A stretch of 64,000 nt of DNA from Candidatus Eiseniibacteriota bacterium (lineage in GTDB: Bacteria; Eisenbacteria; RBG-16-71-46; CAZAMP01), in the NCBI GenBank assembly GCA_965224245.1, contig OZ245046.1, positions 5,312,001 through 5,376,000 on the forward strand, read 5' to 3'. Below, in pieces: positions 9,880-32,389 of the stretch (within the stretch, counting starts at the first letter, position 1; each line of letters opens with the position of its first letter). The position numbers and the translations under genes were made by a program. The notes under the pieces are model-generated. The model did not search any database. It saw only the letters and a list, made by a program, of their open reading frames with translations, and was not told the origin of the DNA.

Positions 9880-9995
9880 GGGACCCCCTCAGTTGAGCGC
9901 GAATCGGAAACGCGTACCATACGCGGACCGGCGTCGCCCTCGCAACGACGGTGCTCGTCGAGGGTTTCACGCGCCGGGGCCCGGGGGCGGGAACG

Positions 9996-14739: not shown

Positions 14740-15617
14740 GCGGCCGCTCCTTCCGTGGCCCGGTTCTGCCGGAGGAACCACAGGACGAACGCGAGCAGGA
14801 TCAGGAAGATCACCACCGAGAACGCGGCCGCGTACCCGTAGCGGTAGTACGTGAACGCCGCCTTGTACACGTACGTGACCAGAATGTGCGACTTGTCCGA
14901 CGGCTGTCCGCCGTTCGTGACCAGCCAGATCACGTTCAGGTTGTTGAACGTCCACACGGTGCCGAGCGAGATGGCGGGCACCATGACCGGTCTGAGGTTC
15001 GGGATCGTGATGTGCCGGAAGCGCTGCCACGCCGACGCGCCGTCGATCGACGACGCTTCGTACAGCTCCTTCGGGATCGACTGCAGACCGCCGAGGGCGA
15101 TCACCATCATGAACGGAAAGCCGAGCCAGACGTTCGTGAGCGTGGGGGCCACGAACGCCCAGAGCTCGTTCGACAGCCACGGCACCTTGTCGGCGTGAAG
15201 CCACTTCTCGAGGATCAGATTGAACGCGCCGTACTCGTAGTTGAACATCCCGCGCCAGGTCAGCGCGACGATGTACTGCGGCACCGCCCAGGGCAGGATC
15301 AACAGCGCGCGGTAGATGGGCTGTCCGGCGAACGGACGGTTCAGGAGCACCGCGAACGCGACGCCGATCACCACGTGACTCACGACGTTTGCCACCGTCC
15401 AGATGACGGTCTTCAGGAACGTCGTGTAGAGCGCGGGCTCCTCGAAGAGGCGCCGGTAGTTCTCGAACCCGACGATCTTCGGATCACGCACCGTGTACAG
15501 GTTCATGTTCGTGATCGACAGGTACAGGTTGTAGACGAACGGATAGAGCACCACGATCGCGATGATCGCGACCGTGGGCGCGAGGAGGAGATACGGCAGG
15601 CGGCGTTCTCGGGTCAT
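14736..15617 (-). CDS. malF: Maltose/maltodextrin ABC permease, MalF-like
   Basis: ILPWAVP, NVWLGFPFMM, LQSIPKELYEASSIDGA and TFNNLN motifs. Confidence 0.88.
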   Translation of the reverse strand: MTRERRLPYLLLAPTVAIIAIVVLYPFVYNLYLSITNMNLYTVRDPKIVGFENYRRLFEEPALYTTFLKTVIWTVANVVSHVVIGVAFAVLLNRPFAGQPIYRALLILPWAVPQYIVALTWRGMFNYEYGAFNLILEKWLHADKVPWLSNELWAFVAPTLTNVWLGFPFMMVIALGGLQSIPKELYEASSIDGASAWQRFRHITIPNLRPVMVPAISLGTVWTFNNLNVIWLVTNGGQPSDKSHILVTYVYKAAFTYYRYGYAAAFSVVIFLILLAFVLWFLRQNRATEGAAA

Positions 15618-16879
15618 CAGCCCTTCATCTCGTCGATCTTCCGGAGCGCCTCCTGCTGCATCTGTCGGGCCGCCTCGGCCGGGGTGAGCGATCCGTTCCA
15701 GACGCTCTGGACGCCGGGGCGCATCGCGTCCCAGATCGCGCGCATCTCGGGTACGACCGGCATGCGGCGCCCGACCATCACCTGCGAGCGCGAGGCCTCG
15801 AGCGTCTCGTCGCTCTGGATCGCCGGATCCTGGTAGGCCGCCTTGCGCGTGGGCAGCGTTCCGAGCCGCGTCGCGAAGTCGATCTGGCTGCGAACCGACG
15901 TGAGCTCCTCCAGCAGCGCCTCGATCCGCGCCAGCTTGGCCCCGGTGACGCGCGCGTTGATGGAGTACCCCTTGGACGAGATCATGGGCGCCGGCCACCG
16001 TCCGTCGATCCTCGGCAGACGACTGATCGCGATGTCGACGCCCGCCTTGCGATACGCCGACCACGACCACGGTCCGTTGATGATCATCGCCGCCCGGCCC
16101 TCGCTGAACAGCGTGTGTGCAAGCTCGTAGTCGCACTCCGCCGGTGACACGCCGTGCTCGTTTCGGAGCGCGTCGTATAGCCCCAGCGCCTTCACCATCG
16201 CGGGCGTGTCGAGCGTCGGGGCGTGGCTCTCGTCCATGACCCAGCCCCCGGAGCCGGTCAGAAACGGGATCACCCAGAACGGCTCACCCACCTGGAACAC
16301 GAGCCCGTACCGATCGATGCGGCCGTCGCCGTTCGTGTCGACCGTGTTGGCCTTCGCGATGGCCACCAGCTCGTCCCAGGTCTCGGGCGCGTCGGGGACG
16401 AGCGCGGTGTTCCGCACGAGCGCCAGGTGATTGCCCAGCTGATCGGGCAGCGCCCACACGTGACCGTCCAGCGTGTCGAACGCCTCGGGCACGAACGCGT
16501 CGAGCGCGTCGCCGAGGATCTCGTCCAGGGGATGGATCACGCGCATGATCGAGAACGGGCCGATCTGATCGGAGGGACCGAACACGAGATCCGGTCCGCC
16601 GCCGGCCAGCGCCGCCGTCTGGAACTTCGTTCGAAGATCCTCGGTGGACTCGTGACTCACCTCGAACGTGAGCTCCGGGTGATTGGCCTGTACCTCGGCC
16701 AGGTGCTCGGTCAGGACCGATCGCTCCTCGGGATCCATCTGGACCCAGATCGCGATCGTGGTGTCCGTGGCCGACCCACCGTCACCTCCGCCGCAGGACA
16801 GGGTGAAGGTCGCCACGATCGCGCAGGCGACCGCGATCGCGCCCGCGCGAGAACGGATTCCGATCCTCGAAGTCCACAT
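15617..16879 (-). CDS. malE: Maltodextrin-binding lipoprotein, MalE-like
   Basis: Lipobox TLSC; GPDLVFGPSDQIG, AAMIINGPW and MPVVPEMRAIW motifs of the MalE family. Confidence 0.85.
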   Translation of the reverse strand: MWTSRIGIRSRAGAIAVACAIVATFTLSCGGGDGGSATDTTIAIWVQMDPEERSVLTEHLAEVQANHPELTFEVSHESTEDLRTKFQTAALAGGGPDLVFGPSDQIGPFSIMRVIHPLDEILGDALDAFVPEAFDTLDGHVWALPDQLGNHLALVRNTALVPDAPETWDELVAIAKANTVDTNGDGRIDRYGLVFQVGEPFWVIPFLTGSGGWVMDESHAPTLDTPAMVKALGLYDALRNEHGVSPAECDYELAHTLFSEGRAAMIINGPWSWSAYRKAGVDIAISRLPRIDGRWPAPMISSKGYSINARVTGAKLARIEALLEELTSVRSQIDFATRLGTLPTRKAAYQDPAIQSDETLEASRSQVMVGRRMPVVPEMRAIWDAMRPGVQSVWNGSLTPAEAARQMQQEALRKIDEMKG

Positions 16880-17219
16880 GGCCGGCTCCCGGAGACGGGT
16901 GTGAGCGCCTCGAACTGGCGTGGCCGGACGATAGCGCGTCCGTCGGACCCGGGCAACGGCTCGACATCGCGCAACGACCAGATTCCGCAAGGGTTTGGGA
17001 CGTCGCCGCAGGCCCCACTGGCGGTGCGCGCTCCGTGGACGAAACCCGCCGCATCCGGTAAAATCGACCGTTCCGAGTTCGCCGGATTCTGCCAGGCCAG
17101 GCGCCCCCGGGCCGCGTCGCGTTCGCCCGGACGCACGTCTCCGAGGCTGCGCTCTGCATCGTCGACCCAGCGCCTTCGAGCGCGACGTCGCGCGCCCGCG
17201 CGACCAGGAGGTACCGAGC

Positions 17220-19289
17220 ATGATCACCCGCCGAATCGCGTTGCCGGCCTGCGCCGCGTCGGCCTTTCTGTGCGGCCTGACCGGGGCCGCCGGAGCCGAG
17301 GGTTTCGGCACGCCGACGATCGACGGCGTCATCGATGCCGTCTACGGCGACCCCGAAGCCACCGACCCCACCGACGATGCGCCGCAGGGATTCGAGCACC
17401 TCGACCTCGGTCGCCTGTATGTCTGCAATGACGTCGACTACTGGTACTTCGCGTTCGAGGCGGACGACGACGTCCTGGCCACGAACTGGGGCAAGTACAT
17501 GATCGAGATCGACACCACGAACGACGCCGCCGGCGCGACCGTGGACGCGTGGGGTCGCAACGTCGTGATCAGCGATCCGCACAAGCCCGAGTTCTCGCTC
17601 CGGAGCTGGGTGGACGGCGGCGGCGCCTACAGCGCGGCGAAGACCCAGGTCTGGGCCTGGGACGGCGCCTCCTGGTCGACCGACGGCGCCCTGGACGACG
17701 CCGCCGTGGCCGAGGGCACAACCAGCGTGTTCGAGTGGAAGGTGGCCAAGACCCGCATCGGCAGCCCGTCGACGATCTGGTGCGAGGTGTTCACGACCGC
17801 CGGCGGCGGCGGCGACAACGCGCAGGACACGTCGAACGACCCCGCCGACGACTGGAACGCCACCGACTGGACGACCACCGCGGTGCTCGCCAACTCCACC
17901 GAGGTCGCCGAGACGTCGGGATCGGACGTGACGCCGCCGACGCTGGTCTCGGTCACGGGTATCGGTCAGGATCCGATCACCGACCTCCTGCTCGAGTTCT
18001 CCGAGGCGCTCGAGCAGCTGTCCGCCGAGACGACCGGCAACTACAGCATCGACGATACCGCCGTGACGATTCTCAGTGCCATCCAGGACACGATCGAGCC
18101 GCGCAAGGTGACCCTCGTCACCGAGTACGTTCCGGCTCCCGCGGGCGAGGGCTCGAGGGGCGCTACAGGGCTTCCGTACGGGCAATGCTTCGAGGTGACG
18201 GTGACCGGCGTCGAGGACGTCGCGGGCAACCCGATCGTCGACGACGGCATCTCGAACGTGGCCGGGTTCCAGCTCTGGAGCCTCACCTTCCGGGCCAACA
18301 TGAACCTGCGCCTCCGGGACGTGTCGTACTTCCCCGACACCGAGGACGTGGGTCTCGAGGGCAGCCAGTCGCCCCTCACGTGGGATCCGGTCGGCGATCT
18401 CCTGCTCGACGACGCCGACGGCGACAGCGTGTACACGGCGACCGTCCAGTTCTCGTTCCCGTGTGAGAGCATCCCGGCACCCGGCGGAAACACGCTCGAG
18501 TACAAGTTCACCCACAAGGGCGAGTACGAGTCGATCGGCAACCACTTCTACGCGTTCGATCCGCTCATCGGTGAGGACGTGCTCAACATCTGGTGGAACG
18601 ACGTCGCGCCGAGCGACATCACGGCCAACGTCGTCGACGTGATCTGGACGGTCGACACGAGTGGAGAGACCGTGCCCCCCGTGGACGGCGTGGACGTGCT
18701 CGCGCTGAACGGGAGCCAGCTCCCGCTCAACTGGGACGTCCCACCGCTGGGGTCGAGCGCGCTTCGGGACAACGGAGTCGCGCCCGACGATACGGCCGGC
18801 GACGACATCTGGTCGATCCGCGTGCGCTTCCCGGTGGGCACGTTCAGGACCGTCTACCACAAGTTCGTCCTGAACGACGTCTACGAGTGCGAGGACCAGG
18901 ACAACCGCAGCATCACCATCGACGACGCGACCTACAGCGACACGAACCCGCAGATCCTGGACACGGCCACCTACGATCAGTGCGTGATCCTCGGCGTCGA
19001 AGACGCCTCGCTGCCCCGGCTGCAGATGGTGGCGCGGCCGAACCCGTCGACCCGGGGCACGTTCATCGCATTCACGACCGATCGTGAGACCGACGTCCGG
19101 GTGACCGTGCACGACGTGCAGGGACGGCAGGTACGTGAGCTGGAGGACGGGCCGATGCCGATCGGGCGCACGGCGATCTTCTTCGACGGGCGTGACGCCG
19201 GCGGGCGTGCGCTCGCGTCGGGCACGTACTACGTCCGGATCGAGACGGCGGATGGCGTGGAGACGCGTCCGCTGACGCTGATGCGCTGA
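17220..19289 (+). CDS. Secreted multi-domain protein (DOMON/CBM9-like, Ig-like, two CBM20-like modules, C-terminal FlgD-Ig-like domain)
   Basis: CAGGAGG RBS; signal peptide; TIDG...DLGRLYV, LEYKF and YHKFVLN modules; LRDNGVAPDDTAGDDIWS loop; PNP...HDVQGRQV...GTYYVR tail; no catalytic motif recognised. Confidence 0.78.
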   Translation: MITRRIALPACAASAFLCGLTGAAGAEGFGTPTIDGVIDAVYGDPEATDPTDDAPQGFEHLDLGRLYVCNDVDYWYFAFEADDDVLATNWGKYMIEIDTTNDAAGATVDAWGRNVVISDPHKPEFSLRSWVDGGGAYSAAKTQVWAWDGASWSTDGALDDAAVAEGTTSVFEWKVAKTRIGSPSTIWCEVFTTAGGGGDNAQDTSNDPADDWNATDWTTTAVLANSTEVAETSGSDVTPPTLVSVTGIGQDPITDLLLEFSEALEQLSAETTGNYSIDDTAVTILSAIQDTIEPRKVTLVTEYVPAPAGEGSRGATGLPYGQCFEVTVTGVEDVAGNPIVDDGISNVAGFQLWSLTFRANMNLRLRDVSYFPDTEDVGLEGSQSPLTWDPVGDLLLDDADGDSVYTATVQFSFPCESIPAPGGNTLEYKFTHKGEYESIGNHFYAFDPLIGEDVLNIWWNDVAPSDITANVVDVIWTVDTSGETVPPVDGVDVLALNGSQLPLNWDVPPLGSSALRDNGVAPDDTAGDDIWSIRVRFPVGTFRTVYHKFVLNDVYECEDQDNRSITIDDATYSDTNPQILDTATYDQCVILGVEDASLPRLQMVARPNPSTRGTFIAFTTDRETDVRVTVHDVQGRQVRELEDGPMPIGRTAIFFDGRDAGGRALASGTYYVRIETADGVETRPLTLMR

Positions 19290-20450: not shown

Positions 20451-21836
20451 CTACTCGATCGTGCTGATCCGCCAGGTCGAGCGCCGCTCGTCCAGCTCGA
20501 AGCGATAGTCGCCGTCGCCCGGGAACTTGATCGACAGCCCCGTGCCCTCGCCGCTGACGATGCAGGCGTCGCCGCTCGTGACCCCACCCACGAACTCGTG
20601 GATGTCATCCTCGCTCGTGCACGTGCCGTAGTCGTCGTCCCACGCCTCGTTCGTGCGGAACTTGAGCACCCACACCGAGTCGGCATCCACCGAGATCGTC
20701 AGCGTGTCGGCCCACACGCACTGCGACGGGTCCACCAGTGTCATGTGCGGGCCGCCGGGTGGGGGCGGCCAGCCGTTGAACTCGCCGACGATCTCGATCG
20801 CCGAGCTGGTCTGGCACGCCTCGTCCACGAGCAGCGTGATCGGATCCAGCGTCGTCGTGGTCTCGGCGGTCACCTCCACGTCCGTGATCGTTTGGGAGAC
20901 ATAGCCGGCGGCCGAGATCTCGACGCCGACCGTTCCCACCGGAACGTCCTCGATCACGAACGCGCCCGCGGCGTCGGTCGTGCCCTCGATCGTGCCGGTG
21001 CCGGCCGTCACGCGAACGGTGGCCGTGGGCAGCTCGGCCGGATCGTCGTCGAACGTGACCGTGCCCGCGACGGTCCCGAACTCGGCGTCCACGAGCGTGA
21101 TCGTCTCCAGATCGGCCGAGCCGCCGTCGGTGATCACGACCCCGGAGACGTGCCGGTCCACGAAGCCCTCGGCGATGATGACGACCTCGTACGTGCCGGC
21201 GGGCAGGTTCGGAATCGAGAAGGTTCCGGTGCCCGAGCGCGACGTGGTCACCGGCGCCTCGTCCATCGGCTCGATCCGATACGACGGCGGCGTGGTGCCC
21301 TCGTAGAGGAGGATGTTGTACAGCCCGGACTCGAGCACGTCGGCCCGCATGTCGTTGCCGGTGCCCGAGCCGCGCTCGGTGGTGCCGACGAGGCCGTCGC
21401 CGCCGCCGGCGTTCACGTAGTCGTCGCCCCAGGCCCTGCCCACGACGAACTTCCAGGTGATCTCCCCGCTGGACAGATCGCGCGTGTCGACCCAGGCGCC
21501 GCCGCCGAGATAGCGCATGCCCGGCTCGGACCAGTGTGTGGTGCTCCACTCGTTCCAGGAGCCGGTCGGGTGGATCGTGCTCGTGGTCGTCATGTAGCCC
21601 GGCACGTAGTCACGAAGCGCGTAGATGGTGGCGACCTCGCCGACGCCGAGCCCGGCCACGACGCCGCGCAGCTCGGCGGTTCCGGCGGCCTCGCCGGTGG
21701 GGGTGAGGAGCGTCGAGTCGGGTGCGTCGTCACAGCCGAGCCCGCCCAGACCGGCGACGCCGAACGTGGTCAGCGCGGCGAGTCCGAGGAAGGCTCGCCG
21801 GCGCCGCGGGCTCGTGATCGTGAAGGGCTTGTTCAT
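20451..21836 (-). CDS. Lipoprotein with SusE/F-like (X25-type) starch-binding modules and carboxypeptidase-regulatory-like beta-sandwiches
   Basis: RRAFL...LGGLGC signal and lipobox; TGSWNEW...WKF...W..DY and VGEFNGW...LKF...WDDDYG modules; PAGTYEV repeat. Confidence 0.72.
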   Translation of the reverse strand: MNKPFTITSPRRRRAFLGLAALTTFGVAGLGGLGCDDAPDSTLLTPTGEAAGTAELRGVVAGLGVGEVATIYALRDYVPGYMTTTSTIHPTGSWNEWSTTHWSEPGMRYLGGGAWVDTRDLSSGEITWKFVVGRAWGDDYVNAGGGDGLVGTTERGSGTGNDMRADVLESGLYNILLYEGTTPPSYRIEPMDEAPVTTSRSGTGTFSIPNLPAGTYEVVIIAEGFVDRHVSGVVITDGGSADLETITLVDAEFGTVAGTVTFDDDPAELPTATVRVTAGTGTIEGTTDAAGAFVIEDVPVGTVGVEISAAGYVSQTITDVEVTAETTTTLDPITLLVDEACQTSSAIEIVGEFNGWPPPPGGPHMTLVDPSQCVWADTLTISVDADSVWVLKFRTNEAWDDDYGTCTSEDDIHEFVGGVTSGDACIVSGEGTGLSIKFPGDGDYRFELDERRSTWRISTIE

Positions 21837-21839
21837 TGA

Positions 21840-22247
21840 CTAGTCCACGATGAGTACGGAGTTGAACCCGCCGAAGCCGTCGTCGGTCCGGTTCGGGTTG
21901 TTGGGATCTTCCTTCCAGTTCGTCTCGTCGACCTTGAACTTGTACTGGTAGCGTCCGGGTTCCAGGTCCACGACGAGTCGCCAGACGCCGTCGCCGTCCT
22001 CGTCGGCCATCTCGCCCACGCGGAACCCGCCGGTCTCGGCCAGGCCCGCGCACCAGTTGTTGCTCTCCCAGCTCCCGCAGAGCTGGACGATCTGGGCCGA
22101 GGGGCTCGCGAACTGGAACATGTATCCGCCCTGGACGCGTATGGGCGGTGGCAAGCGCTTCTTGATGAACGTGAGCCGCGTGCAGCCGGCCGCCAGCACG
22201 ACCACGGCCAGGGCCATGCACAGCCCCCGGATACGGTGACGCGACAT
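21840..22247 (-). CDS. Small lipoprotein with AMPK-beta/CBM48-type glycogen-binding domain
   Basis: GAAGGAGG RBS; lipobox LAAGC; LEPGRYQYKFKVD..NW.EDPNNP...DDGFGGFNSVL. Confidence 0.85.
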   Translation of the reverse strand: MSRHRIRGLCMALAVVVLAAGCTRLTFIKKRLPPPIRVQGGYMFQFASPSAQIVQLCGSWESNNWCAGLAETGGFRVGEMADEDGDGVWRLVVDLEPGRYQYKFKVDETNWKEDPNNPNRTDDGFGGFNSVLIVD

Positions 22248-22284: not shown

Positions 22285-24492
22285 CTAGTAGCGAACGATC
22301 GCCTCGAGCTGGAAGCGGCGTTCGTCTTCCAGGGCCCGCTCCGCGCTCACGATGGCGTCGCCGAGCCCCAGGTAGTTCGTCTGCGCCGCCGATCCGTTGG
22401 CGCCGCGCTCGAACAGGAACAGGTCCCGTCCGATGTAATCGTACTCGTTGACCGGCGCGTCGATCACGTAGGGATCCACGCCGTAGCTGAACGCGATGCT
22501 GATGGTGCTCGTCGGCAGGTACGCGATCTCGATGAACGTGGAGACGAACGAGTCGTTCAGATCCAGGATCGCCGAGTCGTAGCTGGCGATGCGGGTGTCG
22601 ACGTAGCCGCGCCAGCGCGGGGCGAGCATGCCCGTCAGGTGGACCAGCGTCTCGACGTAGCTCGGGGTCTTGCCCACGCCGGCGCCGGCGAACGTGCCGT
22701 GATAGGCGAGCTCGACCTGGCGTCCGTCGTGGAGCCCGATGGCGAGGTGCGGCTTGATCACCGACGCGTCGTTCCCGCCGAGCAGCGTGAGCCGCTCGTA
22801 GCTCACCTCGTGCTCGCCGTTCTCGAGCCAGAAGTTCCGCTGGTCGAACCACATCTGCGCGCCCCAGGGCGTGGCCTCGTCGTACGAGAAGCTCGTCTGC
22901 TCGACGTCGACCGCAGCCGCGACCGGGCGGTCGATTCCGGGGAACGGGTCCCACTCGCGCTCGATCGACGCCGAGAGCACGTTCATGTCGTTCGTGAGGT
23001 CGGTGCCCGCCGTGGTGGCGATCGGGGTCAGGTCGTGACGCTGGAGCTCCCAGCTCAGGCTCGCGTCGACGTCCAGGGCGAGCGCGGGCCACGTGAGGCC
23101 GAGAAACGCGCGCACGCTCTCGTCCAGGGTCTGGCTGCCCCGGGGGCCGATGTCGGACTCGTTCCCGGCGCTGACGACCGTGTACACGTCGCTGCCGTCG
23201 ACGGTCGCGGTCTGGATCTCGACGTCGTCACGGACACCCCCCTGGCGGTCCTCGATGACCGACTCGCCCCACAGGAGCTCGGCGTTCACCCGGGGGCCGT
23301 GCTCGCTCCGGTACTCGACGTCGCCACCGAAGGCGTTCCAGCGCTCGAAGAGGCCGACGTACGTCGATCGCGTGCCGAGCGTGTCGACGGTGGCGCTGGG
23401 CACGATCGTCTGAAGCGAGCCGGGGTTGTAGCTCCGATCCATCCGGAACGAGACGCCGACGCGAACGTCGCCCCCCGGCGCCGAGGTGAGCGTCCCCGCA
23501 CGCGCGGCCAGGACGTCCTTGCCGGCGTCACTGACCGCGGTCCGGTAGTCGGTGAGCGGCTGGTCGAACTCGAAGCGTCCCTCGTCGAACACGAGCTGGT
23601 CGGGCGTCATGAACGTCTCGGTGACACCCGGGTGCGTGAAGCCGCCGGGCTCCGAGTCGTCGGAGTAGAGGAGCTGCGCCTCGACGCCGCGAAACGTCTT
23701 CGTCGCCCACGCGCCCACGGTCTCGTAGCCGTAGTCGTGGTCGTAGATCCCGATGCCCCCGACGAGCCGAAGCGGGTCGTCGAACCGGCCCACGCCCTCG
23801 TTGTCCCACAGGACCCCGTCGATCTCGTCGTTGGAGAGCCGCAGCGACCCGCGATCAAAGTTCAGGCGCGTCTGGTAGAAGTCGACGTTGTCGGCCTCGT
23901 TGTGGATGTTGGTGAGCACGTGCGCGCTCAGGTCGTCGTTCACGCGCACGGCGAAGTCCAGGTCGATGTCGAGCGTGGGGCGGCGTAGCTCGTAGCGCGA
24001 GCTCGGCCCGTCGGCCTCCCGGGCGACGTAGTCTCCGATGGATCGCCCGGTCACCACGACCTTCGGGCTCAGCGTCGTGTTGGACGTCGCCGCCATCGCG
24101 GTGAGCGAGCCGTCGGCGGCGATCGTGATCGCGGAGTTTCCGTAATCACCGGCGGTCACGGGGTTTGTGGGGTCGGCGATCCAGTTGCCGTCGACGACGA
24201 ACTTGTAGAGCTGCTGACCGGCCTCCAGGGGAACCGTGATCGCCCACACGCCGTCCTCGTTCGTCATCGGGTTGGCGGTCGTGGACCAGCCGTTGAACTC
24301 GCCGGCCAGACTCACCGAGGACGCGTTCGGATCGGCGTACGTGAACCGGATGCCACCGTCCACGGCCACGGGCTGGGCGTTCGACGCCGCGGGCACGACG
24401 AGAACAGAGGCGATCGCGACCAGGACGGACCACACCCACGAGCGGGCGTGGCGGCGCGGAGTGCGTGGCGACGATACGGCGCGAGTGCCCAT
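22285..24492 (-). CDS. Putative outer-membrane beta-barrel with N-terminal CBM48 (glycogen-binding) domain
   Basis: Signal peptide; SLAGEFNGW...YKFVVDGNWIADPTNP; then alternating amphipathic strands ending FQLEAIVRY (beta-signal-like). Confidence 0.75.
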   Translation of the reverse strand: MGTRAVSSPRTPRRHARSWVWSVLVAIASVLVVPAASNAQPVAVDGGIRFTYADPNASSVSLAGEFNGWSTTANPMTNEDGVWAITVPLEAGQQLYKFVVDGNWIADPTNPVTAGDYGNSAITIAADGSLTAMAATSNTTLSPKVVVTGRSIGDYVAREADGPSSRYELRRPTLDIDLDFAVRVNDDLSAHVLTNIHNEADNVDFYQTRLNFDRGSLRLSNDEIDGVLWDNEGVGRFDDPLRLVGGIGIYDHDYGYETVGAWATKTFRGVEAQLLYSDDSEPGGFTHPGVTETFMTPDQLVFDEGRFEFDQPLTDYRTAVSDAGKDVLAARAGTLTSAPGGDVRVGVSFRMDRSYNPGSLQTIVPSATVDTLGTRSTYVGLFERWNAFGGDVEYRSEHGPRVNAELLWGESVIEDRQGGVRDDVEIQTATVDGSDVYTVVSAGNESDIGPRGSQTLDESVRAFLGLTWPALALDVDASLSWELQRHDLTPIATTAGTDLTNDMNVLSASIEREWDPFPGIDRPVAAAVDVEQTSFSYDEATPWGAQMWFDQRNFWLENGEHEVSYERLTLLGGNDASVIKPHLAIGLHDGRQVELAYHGTFAGAGVGKTPSYVETLVHLTGMLAPRWRGYVDTRIASYDSAILDLNDSFVSTFIEIAYLPTSTISIAFSYGVDPYVIDAPVNEYDYIGRDLFLFERGANGSAAQTNYLGLGDAIVSAERALEDERRFQLEAIVRY

Positions 24493-26102
24493 CAGAAGTT
24501 TCCCTTCACGATCAGCTTGACGATGTTCCGGTTGTCGGCGCTGCCGGCCAGGTCGCCGTCGTCGACGGGGTTCGGCGTGTCGCCGATCCAGCCCGGTCCA
24601 TACTCTAGAAACGCCTCCATGTTGCCGCGCGGGCGGTACTGGAGCTGCGTGAACAGTCCCTTCCGGAGGCGGGCGGGGTCGTTTCCGAACGTGTAGCGCC
24701 CGTAGACCTTGAGTCGCGGGGTGAGGTTGACGCTGCTCTCGACCGACGCGAGCGCCTTCTCGTCGACGCTGTCGAAGTCCTTGATCTTGCCCTGGATCCG
24801 CATCCAGGCCAGGCGGCTCTCCACCTGCACCTCGGCGAAGAGGTCCCGGTTCTGCGTGACGTCCGGGAACTCCGGCTCCGAGAGGTTCCGGTCGATTCGA
24901 TTCGAGTAGTAGAACTTCGTGGTGAAGCCGTTCACGTACTCGACGTACATCTCGGCGTAGAGCTCGGTGAACTTCCGCCGGTCGAAGACGAATCGCTCGT
25001 AGTTGGTGTAGTTGAGCGCCAGCGTGATCGCGCGCTCGGGCACCAGGTACCACGAGTTGAGCCAGATGCCCTGCTCGCCCTGCGCGCGCTGGTCGTCGAG
25101 GGGGCTCGAGAGACGCCCGAGCGGGTTCACGAACTCCGGCCCGTAGTACCAGAAGGACGGCGCGAGGTTGTAGTAGCCGAACGTCGGGTGACCGACGCGA
25201 AGCGCGCGCAGCTCGCCCACCAGCGCGAGGTCGTCCGGCAGCCAGGGATCGAGGCGCTTCAGGCTCGCACTTCCGGGGTCGAAGCCGTCGTCACCCTCGC
25301 TCTGGAATCCCAGGCGCGTCGCGAACTCCAGCGACAGGTCGGTGACGCCGAACTGGTAGCGCATGTCGCCCGCCACCAGATCGAACGCGTTGCTGGGCTC
25401 GCTGGCCTGCGCCTCGACCTTGCGGTTGTACGTCATGCCCAGGCGAAGGCGGTTCCCGAGGAACGGGCGGCGCAGCCGAACGACGTGCGCGTCGTCGGTG
25501 CTGACCGGCGCGAACGCCTCGGCTCCGGCGCCCGGGTTGGACTGCCCGCTGAAGTCGCTGGAGAGGAGCGTCATGTTGGTGCCCCCGAGGCCCCAGAGGT
25601 CCAGACGTGCGCCCTGCGCGTTGTCGGAGTCCTTCAGGTTGTTGGGCTCGACCACGCGGATGAGGTGATTCTCGACCCAGAAGCGATCCTGCCGCTGGAA
25701 GAGGTACAGGTCGGCTCCCCGCGTGGTGCGATCGATCCGGTAGCGCAGATGGCTCTCGCGGTACTGGAACATCGGCCGATTCTGATCGTTGGATCCCGGG
25801 TTCCAGTCGGCCTCGAACTTGACGAACGCCTCCACGCCGGTGGCCGGTGCCGAGAACAGGCGAAACTGCGCGCCGTTGTAGGTGTCGGAGTTGTTGGAGT
25901 CGAAGTCCCACTCGTTGCTGCGGTCCTCCTTCCGCGCGTCGATCTGGATCTGGTACTCGCCCTCGAGCTTGGTGATCGCCGAGGCGTCGATGGCGACGCC
26001 CCCGATCAGCGCGACGGCCAGCGCGCGCGTCGCCAGGCGCGTCGCGGCGTGGCCGGGACGGTCGGGGCGGGCGCGCTCGGCGCGGCGGACTCGGGCTACC
26101 AT
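24492..26102 (-). CDS. Putative outer-membrane beta-barrel of unknown family
   Basis: Signal peptide ending ASA; aromatic-rich alternating strands; C-terminal IVKLIVKGNF; overlaps both neighbouring genes. Confidence 0.7.
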   Translation of the reverse strand: MVARVRRAERARPDRPGHAATRLATRALAVALIGGVAIDASAITKLEGEYQIQIDARKEDRSNEWDFDSNNSDTYNGAQFRLFSAPATGVEAFVKFEADWNPGSNDQNRPMFQYRESHLRYRIDRTTRGADLYLFQRQDRFWVENHLIRVVEPNNLKDSDNAQGARLDLWGLGGTNMTLLSSDFSGQSNPGAGAEAFAPVSTDDAHVVRLRRPFLGNRLRLGMTYNRKVEAQASEPSNAFDLVAGDMRYQFGVTDLSLEFATRLGFQSEGDDGFDPGSASLKRLDPWLPDDLALVGELRALRVGHPTFGYYNLAPSFWYYGPEFVNPLGRLSSPLDDQRAQGEQGIWLNSWYLVPERAITLALNYTNYERFVFDRRKFTELYAEMYVEYVNGFTTKFYYSNRIDRNLSEPEFPDVTQNRDLFAEVQVESRLAWMRIQGKIKDFDSVDEKALASVESSVNLTPRLKVYGRYTFGNDPARLRKGLFTQLQYRPRGNMEAFLEYGPGWIGDTPNPVDDGDLAGSADNRNIVKLIVKGNF

Positions 26103-27058
26103 CTCGGCTCTCCGAACGGCACTCGGAGCGACAGCTCGTACGAGATCCCGAGGTCGTCGTTCGTCACGAACGCGACGTCGACCAGAAAGCGCTCGGCGGC
26201 CAGGCCGACGCCTCCGGCGAAGTCCCCGCCCGAGACCCCCGCGCGGAGCGCGAACACGTCGTAGAAGGACACCTCGGCTCCCGTGTTGAAGAGCCAGTCC
26301 CCGCGCGCGTCCTGGTTGAGGCTCAGCGCGAACACCGACTCCGGATGCCACCGATACGAGAGGCTGACGTCGTGGATGCGCTCGAGCCGCGTGCGACCGC
26401 CGCCGTCCACGAAGTCGAACGTGGGCTCGATCACGTTGCGGACGACGTAGCCCACGGCCACCGTGGGGGACAGGTTCACCAGCGCGGACAGATCCGCCGT
26501 GAGCTTGCGCTGGGAGCCGTAATCGATCTCGCCGGCGTCGGCGTCGTAGCTGACGCTGGCGAGCTTGACGTTGGCCCCGATCGCCAGCGCGTAGCTCCCG
26601 GTGTAGGCCACGACGTCGCGCGCGACGCCGAACGTGACCATGTCCTCGGAGACGACGTTCTCGACCCCGGTGTGATGCCACGCGACCGAGACCGACGTCC
26701 GGTCGCGGTGATGGACGGCGCTCGCGAACTGGGTACCCAGGTTCTCCACGACGTAGGGCCGGCTGTGCACGAAGAGGATCTCGCTCCGGCGCATGGTGAC
26801 CAGGGCGGCGGTGTTCCACGACACGGCCGACCCATCGTCGGCGATGGCCGAGTAGGCGCGCCCGATGGCGGTCCCTCGTGCCCCGGCGAGCATGCGCTCG
26901 AAGTGGGCGCCCACCGGCTGCGGCGCGAGGGCGCTCAGGGCGACGGCGGCGAACGCCCAGACGAGGATCGAAGCGTCCGGTGACGTGACCCTTGCCCCGG
27001 CGTGGCGCGAGAGCGCGGCGCGCGCCGCCGCCCGAGCGCGGTTCGCCCGCCCGCTCAT
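26096..27058 (-). CDS. PorV/PorP-like (FadL-fold) outer-membrane barrel
   Basis: GARGTAIGRAYSAIADDGSAVSWNTAAL matches the PorV/UPF0164 N-terminal motif; GAEVSF...LRAG...DLGISYELSL. Confidence 0.8.
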   Translation of the reverse strand: MSGRANRARAAARAALSRHAGARVTSPDASILVWAFAAVALSALAPQPVGAHFERMLAGARGTAIGRAYSAIADDGSAVSWNTAALVTMRRSEILFVHSRPYVVENLGTQFASAVHHRDRTSVSVAWHHTGVENVVSEDMVTFGVARDVVAYTGSYALAIGANVKLASVSYDADAGEIDYGSQRKLTADLSALVNLSPTVAVGYVVRNVIEPTFDFVDGGGRTRLERIHDVSLSYRWHPESVFALSLNQDARGDWLFNTGAEVSFYDVFALRAGVSGGDFAGGVGLAAERFLVDVAFVTNDDLGISYELSLRVPFGEPRW

Positions 27059-28311
27059 CTCACCACCGTGAACGCACGCTTCGCGCGGCTCGGGCCGACT
27101 TCCTCGACCACGCTCAGGATGTAGATACCCCCGGGAACCGGCCGATCGGCGCCGTCACGTCCATCCCAGCGATCCTTGGTCGGGTCGGTGGGAGAGGTGG
27201 CCGGCCGGACGTCCTCGACGTAGAGCGAGCGAACGACCTGGCCGCGCATGTCGTACACGCGGGCGGTCAGGCTCACCTCGCGGAAGTCCTCGGACGTAGA
27301 CGGGTCGAGACGGATCTCGAACTCGAGGTCTCGCGACTCCTCGGGCGAGACGATCGGGTTGGTGATGTGGAGGCTCGTGACGTCGAACTTGATGCCCTCG
27401 ATGGGTGGACGCCGCTTGAAGCGGATGCGCTCGCGGACCGAGGCGCCGAAGTCCGGGTAGCCCGGGACGCCATCGCCGTCCACGGCGTCGTCCGGGTCGG
27501 CGTCCCCGTCCAGCGGAAGGATCGCGTAGTTGTCGATCGTGACCAGCGCGGCGCTGTCCACCGAGTGTCCGTTGAAGTTGTCCGGTGCGGAGTCGGGGCC
27601 TCCGGTGCCGTCGGCGCCGGCGGTGACCACCGCGGCGAGCTTCAGGCGGTCCATGCCGTCGGGGACTCGCCACACGTCGGCGTCCAGCGCCGGCACGAAG
27701 TCCTGCTCGGACTGACCGAAGAAGACCAGCGACCACGGAATCGCGAACTCCATCGCACGATCGGTCGAGCTGCCGTCGAAGGTCGCCACACCTCGGAACT
27801 GCGTGGACGCGACCTGCACGACCTGATTCACGCCGGTGACCGTCCACATCTGCGGCGCGCCGTTCCGGTCCCAGGTGGCGACGAAGAAGTCGGGAGCGAA
27901 GTCACTGGAGAAGACGAAGTTACGGCGCCAGGCATTGACCTCGGTCATGCCGTCGAGACCGGCGACGCCGTCGGCCGAGGGCACCTCGTCGGCGACGTCC
28001 ACGAACAGGATCGTGTTGTTGTCGAAGATGAAGCCGTCAACGGCCAGGTAGAGCGAGTCGGCGTCCCAGGTGACCTTGATCTGGTTGACGTCGTTGAAGG
28101 GCCCCCACTCGGAGTCGTTCAGCGACTCCTCGAGCGTGTTCAGCTCCTCGTTGACGCCGAACACGACCTCGTCGGCCTCGAAGTCGGACGTGAAGCCGTC
28201 GACCTCGAGTCGACCGCCGCGGTCGAGCTCGGTGATGGCGTCGGCCCGTGGCGCGATCGCGCACAGCAAGAGCGCGAGACCGGCGCGGACGACCGGAGCC
28301 TCCAGATACAT
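27055..28311 (-). CDS. Secreted protein with DOMON/CBM9-like domain and C-terminal FlgD-Ig-like domain
   Basis: Signal peptide; VTWDADSLYL and EFAIPW; NPIVSP...VYDMRGQVVRSL...WDGRD...PGGIYIL tail. Confidence 0.8.
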   Translation of the reverse strand: MYLEAPVVRAGLALLLCAIAPRADAITELDRGGRLEVDGFTSDFEADEVVFGVNEELNTLEESLNDSEWGPFNDVNQIKVTWDADSLYLAVDGFIFDNNTILFVDVADEVPSADGVAGLDGMTEVNAWRRNFVFSSDFAPDFFVATWDRNGAPQMWTVTGVNQVVQVASTQFRGVATFDGSSTDRAMEFAIPWSLVFFGQSEQDFVPALDADVWRVPDGMDRLKLAAVVTAGADGTGGPDSAPDNFNGHSVDSAALVTIDNYAILPLDGDADPDDAVDGDGVPGYPDFGASVRERIRFKRRPPIEGIKFDVTSLHITNPIVSPEESRDLEFEIRLDPSTSEDFREVSLTARVYDMRGQVVRSLYVEDVRPATSPTDPTKDRWDGRDGADRPVPGGIYILSVVEEVGPSRAKRAFTVVR

Positions 28312-28410: not shown

Positions 28411-31400
28411 ATGATTTCCCGACGTTCCACGATGGCGAGCGGACGCGCTCTCGAGCGGCTCGCCGTTGTGGTGGTGGCGCTGTCGATGCTGGCGCCGATG
28501 GCCAGGACCGCCGATGCCGAGACGGTCACGTTCCGATGCGAGGCGCCGGGCGCGAACGCGGTCTTCCTGGCGGGGTCGTTCAACGAGTGGTCGCCAACCG
28601 CGCAGGCCATGTCCGACGCGGACGGCGACGGTGTCTTCGAGGTCGCGCTCGACCTCGAGACCGGGGCGTACCCCTACAAGTTCGTGATCGACGGGACCTG
28701 GACCACCGATGAGACGGCCGCCGGGTTCGAGGCCGACCCGTACGGCGGACGGAACTCGATCGTGTACGTCGGCATGGAGCCTCCGGCGCCCGAAGCGGGC
28801 GGGGGCCGGGCGGCATCGCCGACGGGAGCCGCCACCGCCGCCGCGCCCGCGAGCTCGTCCAGGACGCACGACGTCACGTTCCGGTACGAGCCCGTCATCG
28901 GGGGCGAGCGGGACGTCTTCGTCGCCGGGACGTTCAACGGCTGGGTCACCGATCAGGATCGACTCACCGACGCCGATGCGGACGGCGTCTTCACCCTCAC
29001 GATGCCGCTGGCCGAGGGGCGCCACGACTACAAGTTCGTCGTGGACGGCAACTGGATGACCGACGAGAACGCGGTCGAGTTCGCCGACGACGGCTTCGGG
29101 GGCCGGAACTCCGTGCTGATCGTCGACGCCCAGGGCCAGGTGACCCCCGAGCGAGCGCAGGCCGCTCCGGCGGCGGCCGACGGTGCGCTCTACGACGTCA
29201 CGTTCACCCACGTCGCACCCGCCGCGCGCGAGGCGTTCCTCGCCGGCAGCTTCAACGACTGGTCGACCACCGCCACGCCGATGACGCGCTCGGACGACGG
29301 CACGTTCTCGACCACGCTCGTGCTGTCCCCGGGCTCGTATCCTTACAAGTTCGTCGTGGACGGCACCTGGACCACCGACGAGACGGCCGACCAGTTCGTG
29401 GACGACGGCTTCGGGGGCCGGAACTCGGTCATCGTGGTCGACGAGCGGTTCACGTCGGTGCCGCTGGAGCGGGGGGACGGGCTCGTCTACGAGGGCGACA
29501 TCCAGCACACGGGATCGATCGCCGAGTGCAACATGGTCTCGGACACCGAGGTCGTGTTCCGCGCGCGCGCGTATCGCAACGACGTGGACGGCGTCTCGCT
29601 GATGTGCCGCCGGAGCGTGGAGGGGCCGTGGGACGAGCGTCCGATGACGCGTTTCTCCAGCGACGCCGCGTTCGACTACTTCGAGATCACCTACAGCCGG
29701 CCCGACCCGGTCGACGTGGTGAACTACGGCTTCCTGTACCGGGATGGGGACGTGACCCGCTGGCTGGGTCCGCGCGGGTTCGAGGCCGCCGGCGTCACCG
29801 GAACCGCGTTTCTGTTCAACGCCGAGACCGCGGTCGTGCTGGATCCGCCCGGCTGGGTGCGCGACGGCGTCTTCTACCAGATCTTCCCCGATCGCTTCCG
29901 GAACGGCGACAGGAAGAACGATCAGAAGTTCGAGGAGTGGTACTACGAGGGACGCACGCGATTGCCGCGGGTCGGCCCGCAGAACGGCGAGTACTACCAC
30001 TTCGTGAAGGACTGGGACGACTTCTCCGGTCTGGCCGAGAGCCCCTATCGCTCGGACGGGAAGCCCGACTACTTCTCGTTCTACGGCGGCGACATCCAGG
30101 GGGTCATGGACGAGCTCGACTACCTGGCCGACCTCGGCATCACGATCATCTACTTCAACCCGCTGAACGAGGCCCGGTCGAATCACAAGTACGACGCCAC
30201 CGACTACATGACGCTCGACCCCCACTTTGCCGACCCCGAGCTGTTCGCCCGGTTCGTGGCCGAGGCGCACGAGCGGGGGATCCGGATCGTCGTCGACACC
30301 GTGTTCAATCACACCGGCGACACGCACTGGGCGTTTCAGGACGCGGTGAAGAAGGGGCGCGAGTCGGAGTACTGGGACTGGTACGAGTTCAAGCGCTGGC
30401 CGCTTCCCGAGCAGGGCGAGTACGACGCCTCCAGCTACTACGCGTGCTGGTGGGGCTTCGGATCGCTGCCCGACCTCAACTACGACCTCGTGCTCCCCGC
30501 CGATCGCGAGCACACGGTGTCGGACGTCTCGCAGGCCACGCCCAACCAGCCCGTGGTCGACCATCTGCTCGAGGTGGCGACGTTCTGGATCCAGGACATG
30601 GACATCGACGGCTTCCGTCTCGACGTTCCGAACGAGGTGCCGTTCTGGTTCTGGAAGATCTTCTGCGCCGAGGTCCGGCGTCTGAAGTCCGACGTGTACA
30701 TCGTGTGCGAGATCTGGGGAGATGCCACGACCTGGATCACGCCCGACCTCGTGGACGCGACCATGAACTACCGCTACTTCCGCGACCCGGTCCTGCACTG
30801 GATCGGACAGGGACAGGGCAACGCGGTCTCGTTCGATCGCGAGCTGGCGCCCGGCCGCGTCGTGTACGCGCCGCAGTCGCAGCAGGTCATGATGAACCTC
30901 ATCGACAGCCACGACACGGTGCGCTTCCGCACCCAGGCCAGGGGCGACGCGCGGCGGCTGAAGCTCGCGGCGCTGTTCCAGATGACGTACGTCGGAGCGC
31001 CGCACATCTACTACGGCGACGAGGTGGCCATGGAGGGCGGCGCCGACCCCGACTGCCGCCGTCCGTTCCGCTGGAGCTGGACCGAGGATCCGCTGCGCCG
31101 CGACGTGCACGATCACTACGCGAAGCTGATCGACATCCGCAAGCAATGGCGCGCGCTTCGCCGGGGCACGTTCACGCCGCTGGTCGCGTCCGGGAACACG
31201 TACGCGTATCTCCGCCAGGACACCGAGGGATCGGTGGTGGTGGTGCTGAACAACGGCGAGAAGGCAGTCGAGGCCGCAGTGCCGCTGGACGGCGATCGGG
31301 CGGGGGCCGTGTTCGTGGATGCCTTTACAGGAGAACGAGTTAACGCCCAGGGAGGGGAGCTCTCGGTGGCCGTGCCGCCGGTCAGCGGACGGATCTTCAC

Positions 31401-31425
31401 GCTCGCCCATCCGAGCGGGTCCTGA
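28411..31425 (+). CDS. Exported GH13 neopullulanase/cyclomaltodextrinase/amylopullulanase-like enzyme with three N-terminal CBM48 repeats (alternative start 28432)
   Basis: Signal peptide; three AG(S/T)FN.W...YKFV.DG.W..D repeats; FYQIFPDRF, SNHKYD, DGFRLDV, EIW and DSHD catalytic motifs. Confidence 0.92.
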   Translation: MISRRSTMASGRALERLAVVVVALSMLAPMARTADAETVTFRCEAPGANAVFLAGSFNEWSPTAQAMSDADGDGVFEVALDLETGAYPYKFVIDGTWTTDETAAGFEADPYGGRNSIVYVGMEPPAPEAGGGRAASPTGAATAAAPASSSRTHDVTFRYEPVIGGERDVFVAGTFNGWVTDQDRLTDADADGVFTLTMPLAEGRHDYKFVVDGNWMTDENAVEFADDGFGGRNSVLIVDAQGQVTPERAQAAPAAADGALYDVTFTHVAPAAREAFLAGSFNDWSTTATPMTRSDDGTFSTTLVLSPGSYPYKFVVDGTWTTDETADQFVDDGFGGRNSVIVVDERFTSVPLERGDGLVYEGDIQHTGSIAECNMVSDTEVVFRARAYRNDVDGVSLMCRRSVEGPWDERPMTRFSSDAAFDYFEITYSRPDPVDVVNYGFLYRDGDVTRWLGPRGFEAAGVTGTAFLFNAETAVVLDPPGWVRDGVFYQIFPDRFRNGDRKNDQKFEEWYYEGRTRLPRVGPQNGEYYHFVKDWDDFSGLAESPYRSDGKPDYFSFYGGDIQGVMDELDYLADLGITIIYFNPLNEARSNHKYDATDYMTLDPHFADPELFARFVAEAHERGIRIVVDTVFNHTGDTHWAFQDAVKKGRESEYWDWYEFKRWPLPEQGEYDASSYYACWWGFGSLPDLNYDLVLPADREHTVSDVSQATPNQPVVDHLLEVATFWIQDMDIDGFRLDVPNEVPFWFWKIFCAEVRRLKSDVYIVCEIWGDATTWITPDLVDATMNYRYFRDPVLHWIGQGQGNAVSFDRELAPGRVVYAPQSQQVMMNLIDSHDTVRFRTQARGDARRLKLAALFQMTYVGAPHIYYGDEVAMEGGADPDCRRPFRWSWTEDPLRRDVHDHYAKLIDIRKQWRALRRGTFTPLVASGNTYAYLRQDTEGSVVVVLNNGEKAVEAAVPLDGDRAGAVFVDAFTGERVNAQGGELSVAVPPVSGRIFTLAHPSGS
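28522..29440 (+). repeat. Three tandem CBM48-type domain repeats
   Basis: Protein repeats; shared DNA such as GACGACGGCTTCGGGGGCCGGAACTC near 29086 and 29401. Confidence 0.85.
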
Positions 31426-31455: not shown

Positions 31456-31548
31456 GTCCGGGTAACGACGATGCCCAGGCAGCCTCGCCACAGAAGGGGC
31501 AGCACCCGCGGCCACCGCCACGGGGTGCGAAACGCAGGAGGACTGACG

Positions 31549-32286
31549 ATGAAGAAGTCGTTCGAGCTGGCGCTGGCGGTCGCCCTGGTCGCGATGATCG
31601 CGACCTCCGCCGACGCGTTCTACGCTCGAGGCGCGTACTACGCGGATTGGGCCGCCGACGCCGGCAACGAGCTTCGCGACGACGGGACGAACGGCGACAA
31701 GGTGGCCGGCGACGGGATCTTCTCGGGTCTGATCACCGCCGACGTGGTGGCCGGGGACTACGAGTTCAAGGTCGCCAACGCGGACTGGTCGATCTCGTAC
31801 CCCAACAGCAACGTGTGGATCACCACCACCGAGGACAACCAGCAGATCCTGTTCACGTTCGACACGAACACGTACGACGACGGGTGGTTCCCGGCCACGA
31901 ACATCGTCTGGAGCGACGCGCTTCGTCTCGGCTCGAGCTGGGAGATCACCGGCGGAGCTTCCGAGATCGGATCGTGGACGCCGGGCGATGGCGCGGCGGC
32001 GTCGTTCGTGAACGATCGCTGGGAGGTCGTGGTCGACTTCGCGACGACCGGCATGATCGAGTACAAGTGGACGGCGGACGCCGTCTGGACGGTACAGCAG
32101 TTCGGTACCGACGGCGTCGGCAGCAACGCCGACAACATCACCTACGACATCGGCGCCGGCGCGCGCCGCGCTGACCACGTGTTCGCGTTCAACCCGGCCA
32201 ACGGGCGAGGCTACCAGGCCGAGGGATCCACCCCGACGCTGGATGCCTCGTGGAGCCGGATCAAGGAGCTCTACGTCCACGAGTAG
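31549..32286 (+). CDS. Secreted protein with CBM-like modules and C-terminal SWxxIKxxY tail
   Basis: AGGAGG RBS; signal peptide; LRDDGTNGDKVAGDGIF loop; YEFKV and IGSWTP..IEYKW modules; ends TLDASWSRIKELYVHE. Confidence 0.82.
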   Translation: MKKSFELALAVALVAMIATSADAFYARGAYYADWAADAGNELRDDGTNGDKVAGDGIFSGLITADVVAGDYEFKVANADWSISYPNSNVWITTTEDNQQILFTFDTNTYDDGWFPATNIVWSDALRLGSSWEITGGASEIGSWTPGDGAAASFVNDRWEVVVDFATTGMIEYKWTADAVWTVQQFGTDGVGSNADNITYDIGAGARRADHVFAFNPANGRGYQAEGSTPTLDASWSRIKELYVHE

Positions 32287-32309
32287 AGGCTCACCGGCTC
32301 GAATTCGAC

Positions 32310-32346
32310 GTGGCGGAGCGCTACGATGTGGCGCTCCGCCATTTTT
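32310..32346 (+). terminator. Rho-independent terminator
   Basis: TGGCGGAGCGCTAC-gat-GTGGCGCTCCGCCA followed by TTTTT. Confidence 0.8.
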
Positions 32347-32389
32347 GTGCCGCAAACCGTCGCGTCCCGAGAGCCCGGGAGTCCGTCAG

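Follow-up and report, generated by a model that had tools for sequence, protein, structure and literature searches.

The stretch of DNA analysed here (64,000 nucleotides of contig OZ245046.1 from a Candidatus Eiseniibacteriota bacterium, hereafter the window) encodes a predicted outer-membrane protein, designated BarB, in which a carbohydrate-binding module (CBM) of family CBM48 precedes a plug-less beta-barrel of about 24 strands. With moderate confidence, we interpret BarB as the outer-membrane subunit of an uptake apparatus for alpha-glucans (starch, glycogen and maltodextrin) that operates independently of TonB and of SusCD, and in which the tethered CBM48 lies in the periplasm. The cassette encoding BarB probably serves to carry fragments of starch through the outer membrane in several candidate phyla of the FCB (Fibrobacterota, Chlorobiota and Bacteroidota) group, little-studied relatives of the Bacteroidota. 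The novelty lies in a proposed outer-membrane glycan channel with a built-in CBM, placed inside an undescribed multi-barrel cassette that holds two barrel families and one lipoprotein family without a curated model. Searches of the literature on 24-stranded barrels in polysaccharide uptake, and on starch and the outer membrane in Eisenbacteria, returned no description of BarB among the papers listed, and the passage of polysaccharide fragments over the outer membrane is largely unknown outside the Bacteroidota and Proteobacteria. If it is indeed an uptake machine, the cassette would mark uncultured lineages that use starch or glycogen, exemplify a membrane channel into which a carbohydrate-binding module has been incorporated, and offer a testable model of energy-independent import of long glycans.

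Domain organization of BarB

The gene encoding BarB spans positions 22285..24492 of the window on the minus strand and specifies 735 residues, ending in FQLEAIVRY before a TAG stop; translation of 22285-24492 on the plus strand yields no protein. This interval is exactly the one delimited in an initial annotation of the window, which had described a signal peptide, an AMPK-beta-type CBM48 and some 600 residues of amphipathic strands with an aromatic C-terminal signal, in an architecture not recognised among characterised porins. The translation can be divided into four segments, all on the minus strand: a signal peptide (residues 1-39; 24376..24492), a CBM48 or AMPK-beta-type glycogen-binding module delimited by Pfam, PDB sequence and fold matches (residues 40-124; 24121..24375), a 19-residue linker defined from the structural model and from conservation (residues 125-143; 24064..24120), and a predicted plug-less transmembrane beta-barrel of about 24 strands, recognised from the model, fold matches and the C-terminal residue (residues 144-735; 22288..24063). 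The N-terminus, which was called by eye from the sequence and not by a predictor, reads as a predicted Sec signal peptide, with an Arg-rich n-region and a hydrophobic core followed by an ASNA/QP site, cleavage being predicted after ASNA; the model has a helix at residues 15-32, with a low predicted local distance difference test score (pLDDT). These elements bear out the signal peptide of the initial annotation.

The CBM48 module of BarB scored above the gathering cut-offs of two Pfam models, PF16561 (E 2.7e-13, 50.4 bits against a cut-off of 26.8, residues 50-120) and PF02922 (E 4.8e-12, 46.5 bits against 22.4, residues 46-104). Residues 42-124 were modelled by AlphaFold2 as a CBM48 sandwich, and the model superposes on solved CBM48 structures, with 4aef_B as the closest (Z 12.8, root-mean-square deviation (rmsd) 1.6, 87 residues aligned) and with further matches to 1m7x_A (Z 11.7) and 8xxa_A (Z 11.2). 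Among 77 family sequences, W69 and K97 are invariant and W104 and N119 are present in at least 90%. The PDB sequence match aligns W69, K97 and W104 with W100, K126 and W133 of AMPK beta1, and the AMPK-beta mutations W100G, K126Q and W133L/A abolish or weaken glycogen binding (PMC6274970). By Pfam score, superposable beta-sandwich and kept Trp/Lys/Trp glycogen-binding positions, the module is a genuine member of the CBM48 family, as had been proposed at the outset.

BarB shares its Pfam match, fold and Trp/Lys/Trp positions with the CBM48s of AMPK beta-subunits and GH13 enzymes, but these are attached to kinase subunits or soluble enzymes. Searches of the literature on CBM48, starch and outer-membrane barrels found, among the papers listed, no described CBM48 fused to a membrane barrel, and the mentions of CBM48 in a Fibrobacter paper (PMC6851124) are annotations of GH9 cellulases. 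Elsewhere in the same genome, outside the window and unlinked to the gene island described below, a 348-codon frame (C1:588937-589980, minus strand) encodes two CBM48 modules.

The remaining ~590 residues of BarB, corresponding to the barrel, have no Pfam, NCBIfam or PDB sequence match. Residues 125-735 alone returned no Pfam match at E<=5, the NCBIfam matches of BarB were confined to the CBM48-like N-terminus of GlgB models, and a 77-sequence BarB profile matched PDB sequences through its CBM48 part alone (AMPK beta2, E 5e-18). Likewise, none of 41 BarB barrel sequences presented a consistent Pfam match (DAGK_acc appeared in three, with a best E of 0.05, and other families in one member each, at E of 0.05 or above). 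No curated family in Pfam, NCBIfam or PDB sequences hence accommodates a CBM48 joined to this barrel, in agreement with the unfamiliar architecture pointed out initially. A new barrel family as such is less surprising, because many barrel families are still uncharacterised, as indicated in a survey of barrel types (PMC10629564).

Fold and topology of the BarB barrel

The AlphaFold2 model of BarB, built on 77 homologues, presents a mean pLDDT of 91.5 and a predicted template modelling score (pTM) of 0.85, and residues 144-734 are almost entirely strand, which accounts for the ~600 residues of strands noted initially. Twenty-four transmembrane strands were counted, or 26 if two short strands in the loop at 279-325 cross the membrane; the number and orientation of strands and the side of the CBM48 were taken from the DSSP string and a loop-length rule, not from coordinates. 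In a fold comparison against 48,161 chains with VIA-align, residues 142-735 aligned with outer-membrane barrels. The best match was the SusC-like BT1762 (5t3r_D; Z 15.7, rmsd 4.4, 380 residues aligned), and others included FyuA (Z 15.1), OmpT (14.9), the FimD pore (14.8), Cir (14.6) and AlgE (14.1). Foldseek retrieved TonB-dependent transporters at E of ~1e-8, but with template modelling (TM) scores of 0.32-0.39. The C-terminal residue is aromatic in 77 of 77 family members (F in 73, Y in 3 and W in 1), so that the aromatic beta-signal first seen in BarB is a family-wide trait. BarB thereby combines the generic features of outer-membrane barrels, namely a signal peptide, a closed antiparallel barrel in the model and a C-terminal aromatic beta-signal.

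No match to the Plug domain (PF07715) was detected in BarB at E<=1, and the alignments with TonB-dependent transporters begin at about residue 143, opposite the target's first barrel strand, leaving the plug unmatched. The CBM48 and the 19-residue linker account for the 104 residues that separate the signal peptide from the barrel, so that no room is left for a plug. The absence of a visible plug or TonB box in the initial annotation is consistent with these results, and the AlphaFold and Foldseek comparisons that it had proposed point to a large plug-less barrel of the outer-membrane type, with ~24 strands read from the DSSP string. Its designation of BarB as a porin holds insofar as the protein is a plug-less transmembrane barrel, but understates it: classical porins have 16-18 strands, whereas BarB has about 24 and is part of a conserved six-gene cassette.

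Outer-membrane barrels usually have short periplasmic turns and long external loops. The DSSP string of BarB switches between long loops and turns of 2-4 residues, and both barrel ends, where strand 1 begins and where the chain terminates, were placed in the periplasm because they lie on the short-turn side. This reading of the model would put the CBM48 on the periplasmic side of the membrane. Three of the long loops, L3 (231-258), the aromatic-rich L9 (537-574) and the helical L12 (671-725), show conservation values of 0.65-0.67, similar to that of the CBM48 (0.70), and the other long loops range from 0.19 to 0.36. L9 contains a conserved aromatic cluster (Y537, W543, W548, F549, F554 and W555). 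L3, L9 and L12 would shape a specific constriction in the BarB lumen.

The variation of the N-terminal module among related loci is also informative on its role. A scan of species-representative genomes, all of them metagenome-assembled genomes (MAGs), yielded 75 loci, of which 54 contain BarB as judged with hidden Markov models from our own alignments; many of these 54 loci are short contigs. BarB carries one N-terminal CBM48 in 41 of the 54, two in 11, three in one and none in one. In the variant locus with this last, CBM48-less BarB (L065:8221-10983), the usual small lipoprotein is followed by a second lipoprotein bearing two CBM48s on a Pro/Ala-rich linker, in what looks like a natural split form. 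Because this locus moves its CBM48s to an extra lipoprotein, the CBM48 can be regarded as a module tethered to the membrane rather than an integral element of the barrel.

Formally, BarB has the domain order of an autotransporter (signal peptide, passenger-like domain, linker and C-terminal barrel), and could accordingly be conceived mainly as a surface anchor that displays its CBM48 outside the cell, with the linker passing through the lumen and the neighbouring barrel BarA acting as the channel. We consider this arrangement unlikely. It would suit the two or three tandem CBM48s found in 12 of the 54 loci, which are expected for polymer binding, as well as the absence of a CBM in BarA and the moderate conservation of the linker (mean 0.62), which is not random, with block 131-140 (pLDDT 63) as the least confident stretch of the mature protein. 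Unlike the type V autotransporters, however, BarB has ~24 strands instead of 12, lacks a helical segment between the CBM48 and strand 1 that could occupy the lumen, and has no autotransporter Pfam match. Moreover, the recognisable surface proteins of this organism carry tails of the type IX secretion system (T9SS), and BarB has none. The CBM48s of the split locus also reside on a lipoprotein without acidic residues after its cysteine, although the acidic export signal is established for Bacteroidetes only (PMC5080379), and is inconsistent among the orthologues of the 461-residue lipoprotein described below. Were the CBM48 nevertheless exposed at the surface, it would represent an unusual display mode for a binding module.

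BarB is encoded in a conserved multi-barrel cassette

The gene immediately upstream of BarB encodes BarA, a second predicted outer-membrane barrel of ~24 strands identified from its model and from synteny (24492..26102, minus strand; 536 residues, ending in KGNF). Its TGA stop overlaps the ATG of BarB by one nucleotide (TGATG). The AlphaFold2 model of BarA has a pLDDT of 84.9, and 24 strands were counted in it; the best fold matches are the usher pores FimD (Z 17.4) and PapC (Z 16.7), followed by AlgE (Z 16.5), and the C-terminal residue is F in 50 of 50 aligned homologues. BarA has no match among Pfam, NCBIfam or PDB sequences, its profile retrieved PDB sequences at chance level only (E of 0.29 or above), and Pfam searches across 50 members gave nothing consistent, the best being Porin_4 in three of them (E 0.0034). 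Paralogy of the two barrels was not supported, since an hhalign comparison of the BarB (A1) and BarA (A2) alignments produced a single weak local match near the C-terminus (probability 10.7%), and reciprocal profile searches returned nothing at E<=1. DUF6029 (PF19494), suggested by an atlas lead with a score of 0.94, was rejected for both proteins (hhalign probability 0.8% against BarA and 2.2% against BarB); the true DUF6029 of this genome lies elsewhere.

Downstream of BarB, at a distance of 38 nucleotides and preceded by a GGAGG box, lies a gene for a small CBM48 lipoprotein (21840..22247, minus strand; 135 residues), in which a lipobox cysteine (Cys22) and a segment ending in TFIKKRLPPP precede the CBM48. 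In an alignment of 46 sequences, Cys22 is present in at least 90%, and R31 and P35 of the RLPxP motif that follows it are invariant. A single copy of the anchored motif is present in the genome, which argues that it is family-specific and not a general sorting signal, and suggests the RLPxP motif as a candidate docking peptide. A complex prediction for BarB (residues 40-735, A1) and the lipoprotein (residues 22-135, A4) gave a score of 0.00 in two runs without controls, a result that is uninformative either way.

In this cassette, BarA, BarB and the CBM48 lipoprotein are accompanied by two further secreted proteins and a third barrel-like protein. Three nucleotides after the CBM48 lipoprotein gene, a putative lipoprotein of 461 residues (20451..21836, minus strand) presents matches to X25-like and CarboxypepD_reg domains and is a putative surface glucan-binding protein. 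Its cysteine is followed by D-D, but its orthologues are inconsistent in this respect, and the acidic export signal was not relied on as a clue to topology. On the other flank, geneY (26096..27058, minus strand) overlaps the start of BarA by seven nucleotides and encodes a divergent small outer-membrane barrel of 320 residues resembling the PorV/PorQ family (NCBIfam NF033709, E 1.3e-10, 41.4 bits, under the cut-off of 90), with weak FadL/UPF0164 matches. Overlapping geneY in turn, geneX (27055..28311, minus strand) encodes a secreted protein of 418 residues that has a signal peptide and, at its C-terminus, a weak match to FlgD_ig-like domains (E 0.0048). The two may form a T9SS-type anchoring pair operating in the same apparatus as BarA and BarB. 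Genes in the cassette overlap or are separated by gaps of 3-38 nucleotides, and BarB is predicted from this packing to belong to a tight overlapping operon with BarA, the CBM48 lipoprotein, geneY and the two further secreted proteins. On the opposite strand, the first 473 codons (26992-28410) of the open reading frame (ORF) at 26992-31425 constitute an open antisense frame over geneX and geneY. In related high-GC loci, the same antisense-frame artefact produced false 'GH13' matches immediately before BarA, on the other strand.

The organization of the cassette is well conserved. BarA adjoins BarB upstream and on the same strand in 47 of the 49 loci with at least 1.5 kb of upstream sequence, the exceptions (L029 and L049) showing no BarA match even at E<10. 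In each of the 46 loci where BarB is complete and the sequence extends more than 450 nucleotides beyond it, the next ORF downstream is a small CBM48 ORF. The strict post-cysteine motif is found in 40 of these 46, with close variants in L024, L039, L042 and L054, an unclear N-terminus in L050 and a divergent sequence in L080. The genes for geneX and geneY lie upstream of BarA in most related loci, and GH13 enzymes and ABC transporter parts were detected in 36 and 26 of the 54 loci, respectively.

The likeness of both barrels to usher pores (FimD and PapC at Z 17.4 and 16.7 for BarA, and Z 14.8 for BarB) raises the question of whether the CBM48s might serve as gates. In such a scheme, the CBM48 sandwich of BarB or of the lipoprotein would plug the 24-strand lumen from the periplasm until displaced by glucan, much like the plug domain of chaperone-usher pores, resulting in a ligand-gated channel. 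An open barrel of 24 strands would need occlusion, the cassette has two barrels and two CBM48 modules, and the RLPxP segment beside the lipoprotein anchor resembles a docking peptide. We nonetheless hold this scheme to be very unlikely: two or three CBM48s, or CBM48s on a long flexible lipoprotein linker, are a poor fit for a snug plug, loops L3, L9 and L12 are already able to narrow the lumen, and in none of the structural alignments does the CBM48 fall on a plug. As for the ushers themselves, FimD and PapC resemble BarB in being ~24-strand barrels of similar size with associated small beta-sandwich domains, but BarB has no inserted plug domain in its DSSP string and no usher Pfam match, no chaperone or pilin genes lie nearby, and its context is one of carbohydrate catabolism.

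The cassette lies within an alpha-glucan island

The genes flanking the cassette encode a broad set of proteins for alpha-glucan degradation and uptake, which gives BarB a strong alpha-glucan context, as anticipated by the glucan-related role proposed initially. On the plus strand, a neopullulanase/cyclomaltodextrinase-like GH13 enzyme with several CBM48/X25/CBM53-like modules, recognised from domain matches, occupies 28411..31425 (its true start being 28411). It has a Sec signal peptide and neither a lipobox nor a T9SS tail, and is therefore probably periplasmic. It is followed by an X25/choice-of-anchor-X protein with a signal peptide (31471..32286, plus strand, likely start near 31549) and by a second, alpha-amylase-like GH13 enzyme (32243..33664, plus strand), both also identified by domain matches. 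On the far side of the cassette, a MalE-like solute-binding protein and two ABC permeases are encoded at 13912..17332 on the minus strand (ORF limits as listed; MalE model E 3.4e-41, below the equivalog cut-off), and a single uninterrupted frame of 1362 codons (5803..9888, minus strand) holds MalQ (GH77) and GlgB, for cytoplasmic maltodextrin and glycogen metabolism.

Two further proteins of the island carry tails associated with surface sorting. A GH13 enzyme with a CBM48 and a FlgD_ig C-terminal tail, assigned by domain matches (9999..12530, minus strand), is probably surface-exposed or secreted. A 764-residue protein (16995..19289, plus strand), whose sole recognised part is a T9SS type A sorting/FlgD_ig tail, recurs in many related starch loci; the atlas entries that resemble it, which are leads only (scores 0.81-0.83), are T9SS proteins that bind starch. 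Elsewhere in the window, large proteins with FlgD_ig C-terminal tails, one of them with LVIVD repeats, are encoded at 34135-36702 and 43744-48216, both on the plus strand. FlgD_ig tails appear to be a common surface-sorting tag of the organism, and its genome encodes an SprA-like T9SS translocon and several PorV/PorQ paralogues.

No SusD or LamB was detected in the genome, and none of its 12 Plug matches falls inside the window. BarA and BarB are consequently the only candidates for outer-membrane passage in the island.

The gene content of the island also bears on the direction of transport. Barrels exporting an alpha-glucan, or assisting in the secretion or anchoring of T9SS-tailed amylolytic proteins with the CBM48 as a periplasmic guide, would be compatible with the conservation, directly upstream, of geneY (a PorV/PorQ-like barrel) and geneX (with its FlgD_ig-like tail), with the presence of AlgE, PelB and Wzi among the structural matches, and with GlgB in the island. 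The MalE-like protein, the two permeases, MalQ and the hydrolases, however, make up a set for uptake and catabolism, no glycosyltransferase or polymerase was seen in the island, and the structural matches are generic. Known export barrels, in addition, have 16-18 strands and periplasmic partners with tetratricopeptide repeats (TPR) or similar, which counts against this possibility, and we regard export or secretion as highly improbable.

A proposed mechanism for alpha-glucan uptake

Under alpha-glucan uptake through BarB, amylolytic and starch-binding proteins with T9SS-type tails would attack starch or glycogen at the cell surface, and the released chains would cross the outer membrane via BarB and/or BarA. 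The three conserved long loops would constrict the lumens of these barrels, with L9 contributing many conserved aromatic residues, as is often the case in sugar channels. The CBM48 of BarB would be suspended by its 19-residue linker at the end of strand 1 that faces the periplasm and, together with the CBM48 lipoprotein, capture the incoming chain at the periplasmic face, making diffusion one-way. The chain would then be handed to the multi-CBM periplasmic GH13 enzyme and to the MalE-like binding protein. Consistent with this scheme, T9SS tails are present on the surface proteins of the organism and absent from both CBM48 modules, that of BarB and that of the lipoprotein, and the multi-CBM GH13 enzyme with its Sec signal peptide suggests a periplasmic demand for long chains.

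Several observations weigh against this scheme. The role of two different large barrels is left unexplained by it. The linker, at 19 residues, is long enough to thread the lumen, making a surface location of the CBM48 conceivable, and proteins that encounter starch polymers extracellularly are the more typical bearers of tandem CBMs. The proposed topology derives from the DSSP string and the loop-length rule, and the generic fold matches of the model (Z 14-16, to many unrelated barrels) show a large barrel but neither a family nor a function. Lastly, the family is patchy in its own phylum, where the barrel was found at E<=1e-10 in 57 of 201 sampled genomes and in 39 of 121 of high quality.

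A more elaborate form of uptake can be envisaged for the FCB-group candidate phyla that lack SusD, in which the two ~24-strand plug-less barrels, the PorV/PorQ-like barrel and the two tethered CBM48s form one complex, an undescribed import machine that threads long alpha-glucans without TonB by means of a CBM48 ratchet and RLPxP docking. We put this forward as a possibility, if a doubtful one. Such a complex would constitute a third solution to polysaccharide uptake across the outer membrane, beside SusCD transporters and small sugar porins.

Comparison with known systems places BarB close to several of them and within none. Like SusC/SusD in the Bacteroidota, it is an outer-membrane barrel encoded in a glycan locus with GH13 enzymes and glycan-binding lipoproteins, and the SusC-like 5t3r_D is its best fold match; SusC proteins also have an N-terminal periplasmic beta-sandwich extension. 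BarB differs from them in the absence of a plug, a TonB box and sequence similarity, in the lack of SusD in the genome, apparently in strand number (~24 in the DSSP string count versus 22), and in that two barrels and a CBM48 lipoprotein replace the barrel with its SusD lid. With LamB, ScrY and CymA it would have in common that malto-oligosaccharides pass without TonB and supply an ABC importer of the MalE type. LamB is lined by an aromatic 'greasy slide', to which the conserved aromatic cluster of L9 may be likened, ScrY has an N-terminal periplasmic extension, and sugar channels are found among the fold matches of BarB (1a0s_P, Z 12.6; 4d5b_A, Z 12.0). These channels, however, have 14-18 strands and no carbohydrate-binding module, and BarB has no match to the LamB family (PF02264) at E<=1. 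The LptD/LptE pair, a plug-and-barrel assembly, is similar in joining a very large barrel to a co-encoded small lipoprotein with a conserved segment beside its lipid anchor, but it has no sequence relation to the cassette, where the lipoprotein is a conjectural binding partner of BarB. Altogether, we propose that BarB works most like a sugar-specific diffusion channel of the LamB, ScrY and CymA kind set in a Sus-like locus, while being a member of none of these families.

Distribution of the BarB family

A word-indexed protein search returned 186 sequences at E<=1e-3 among 8000 scored, about 100 of them full-length and with 27-49% identity to BarB. The named homologues are described merely as 'glycogen-binding domain-containing protein' and originate from MAGs of Candidatus Eisenbacteria and Gemmatimonadota. 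A profile restricted to the barrel (A3, 41 sequences), searched over 1.84 billion representatives, retrieved 328 sequences at E<=1e-3, 260 at E<=1e-10 and 146 at E<=1e-30. In most full-length matches the barrel starts at residue 110-290, indicating that an N-terminal extension is the rule; no fused forms containing the barrel and longer than 1288 residues were found, which is weak evidence. The barrel is single-copy in this genome and is an accessory trait in its phylum. The cassette was seen in MAGs labelled Eisenbacteria, Gemmatimonadota, Krumholzibacteriota, Cloacimonadota, WOR-3, Zixibacteria, Latescibacterota and Fibrobacteraceae.

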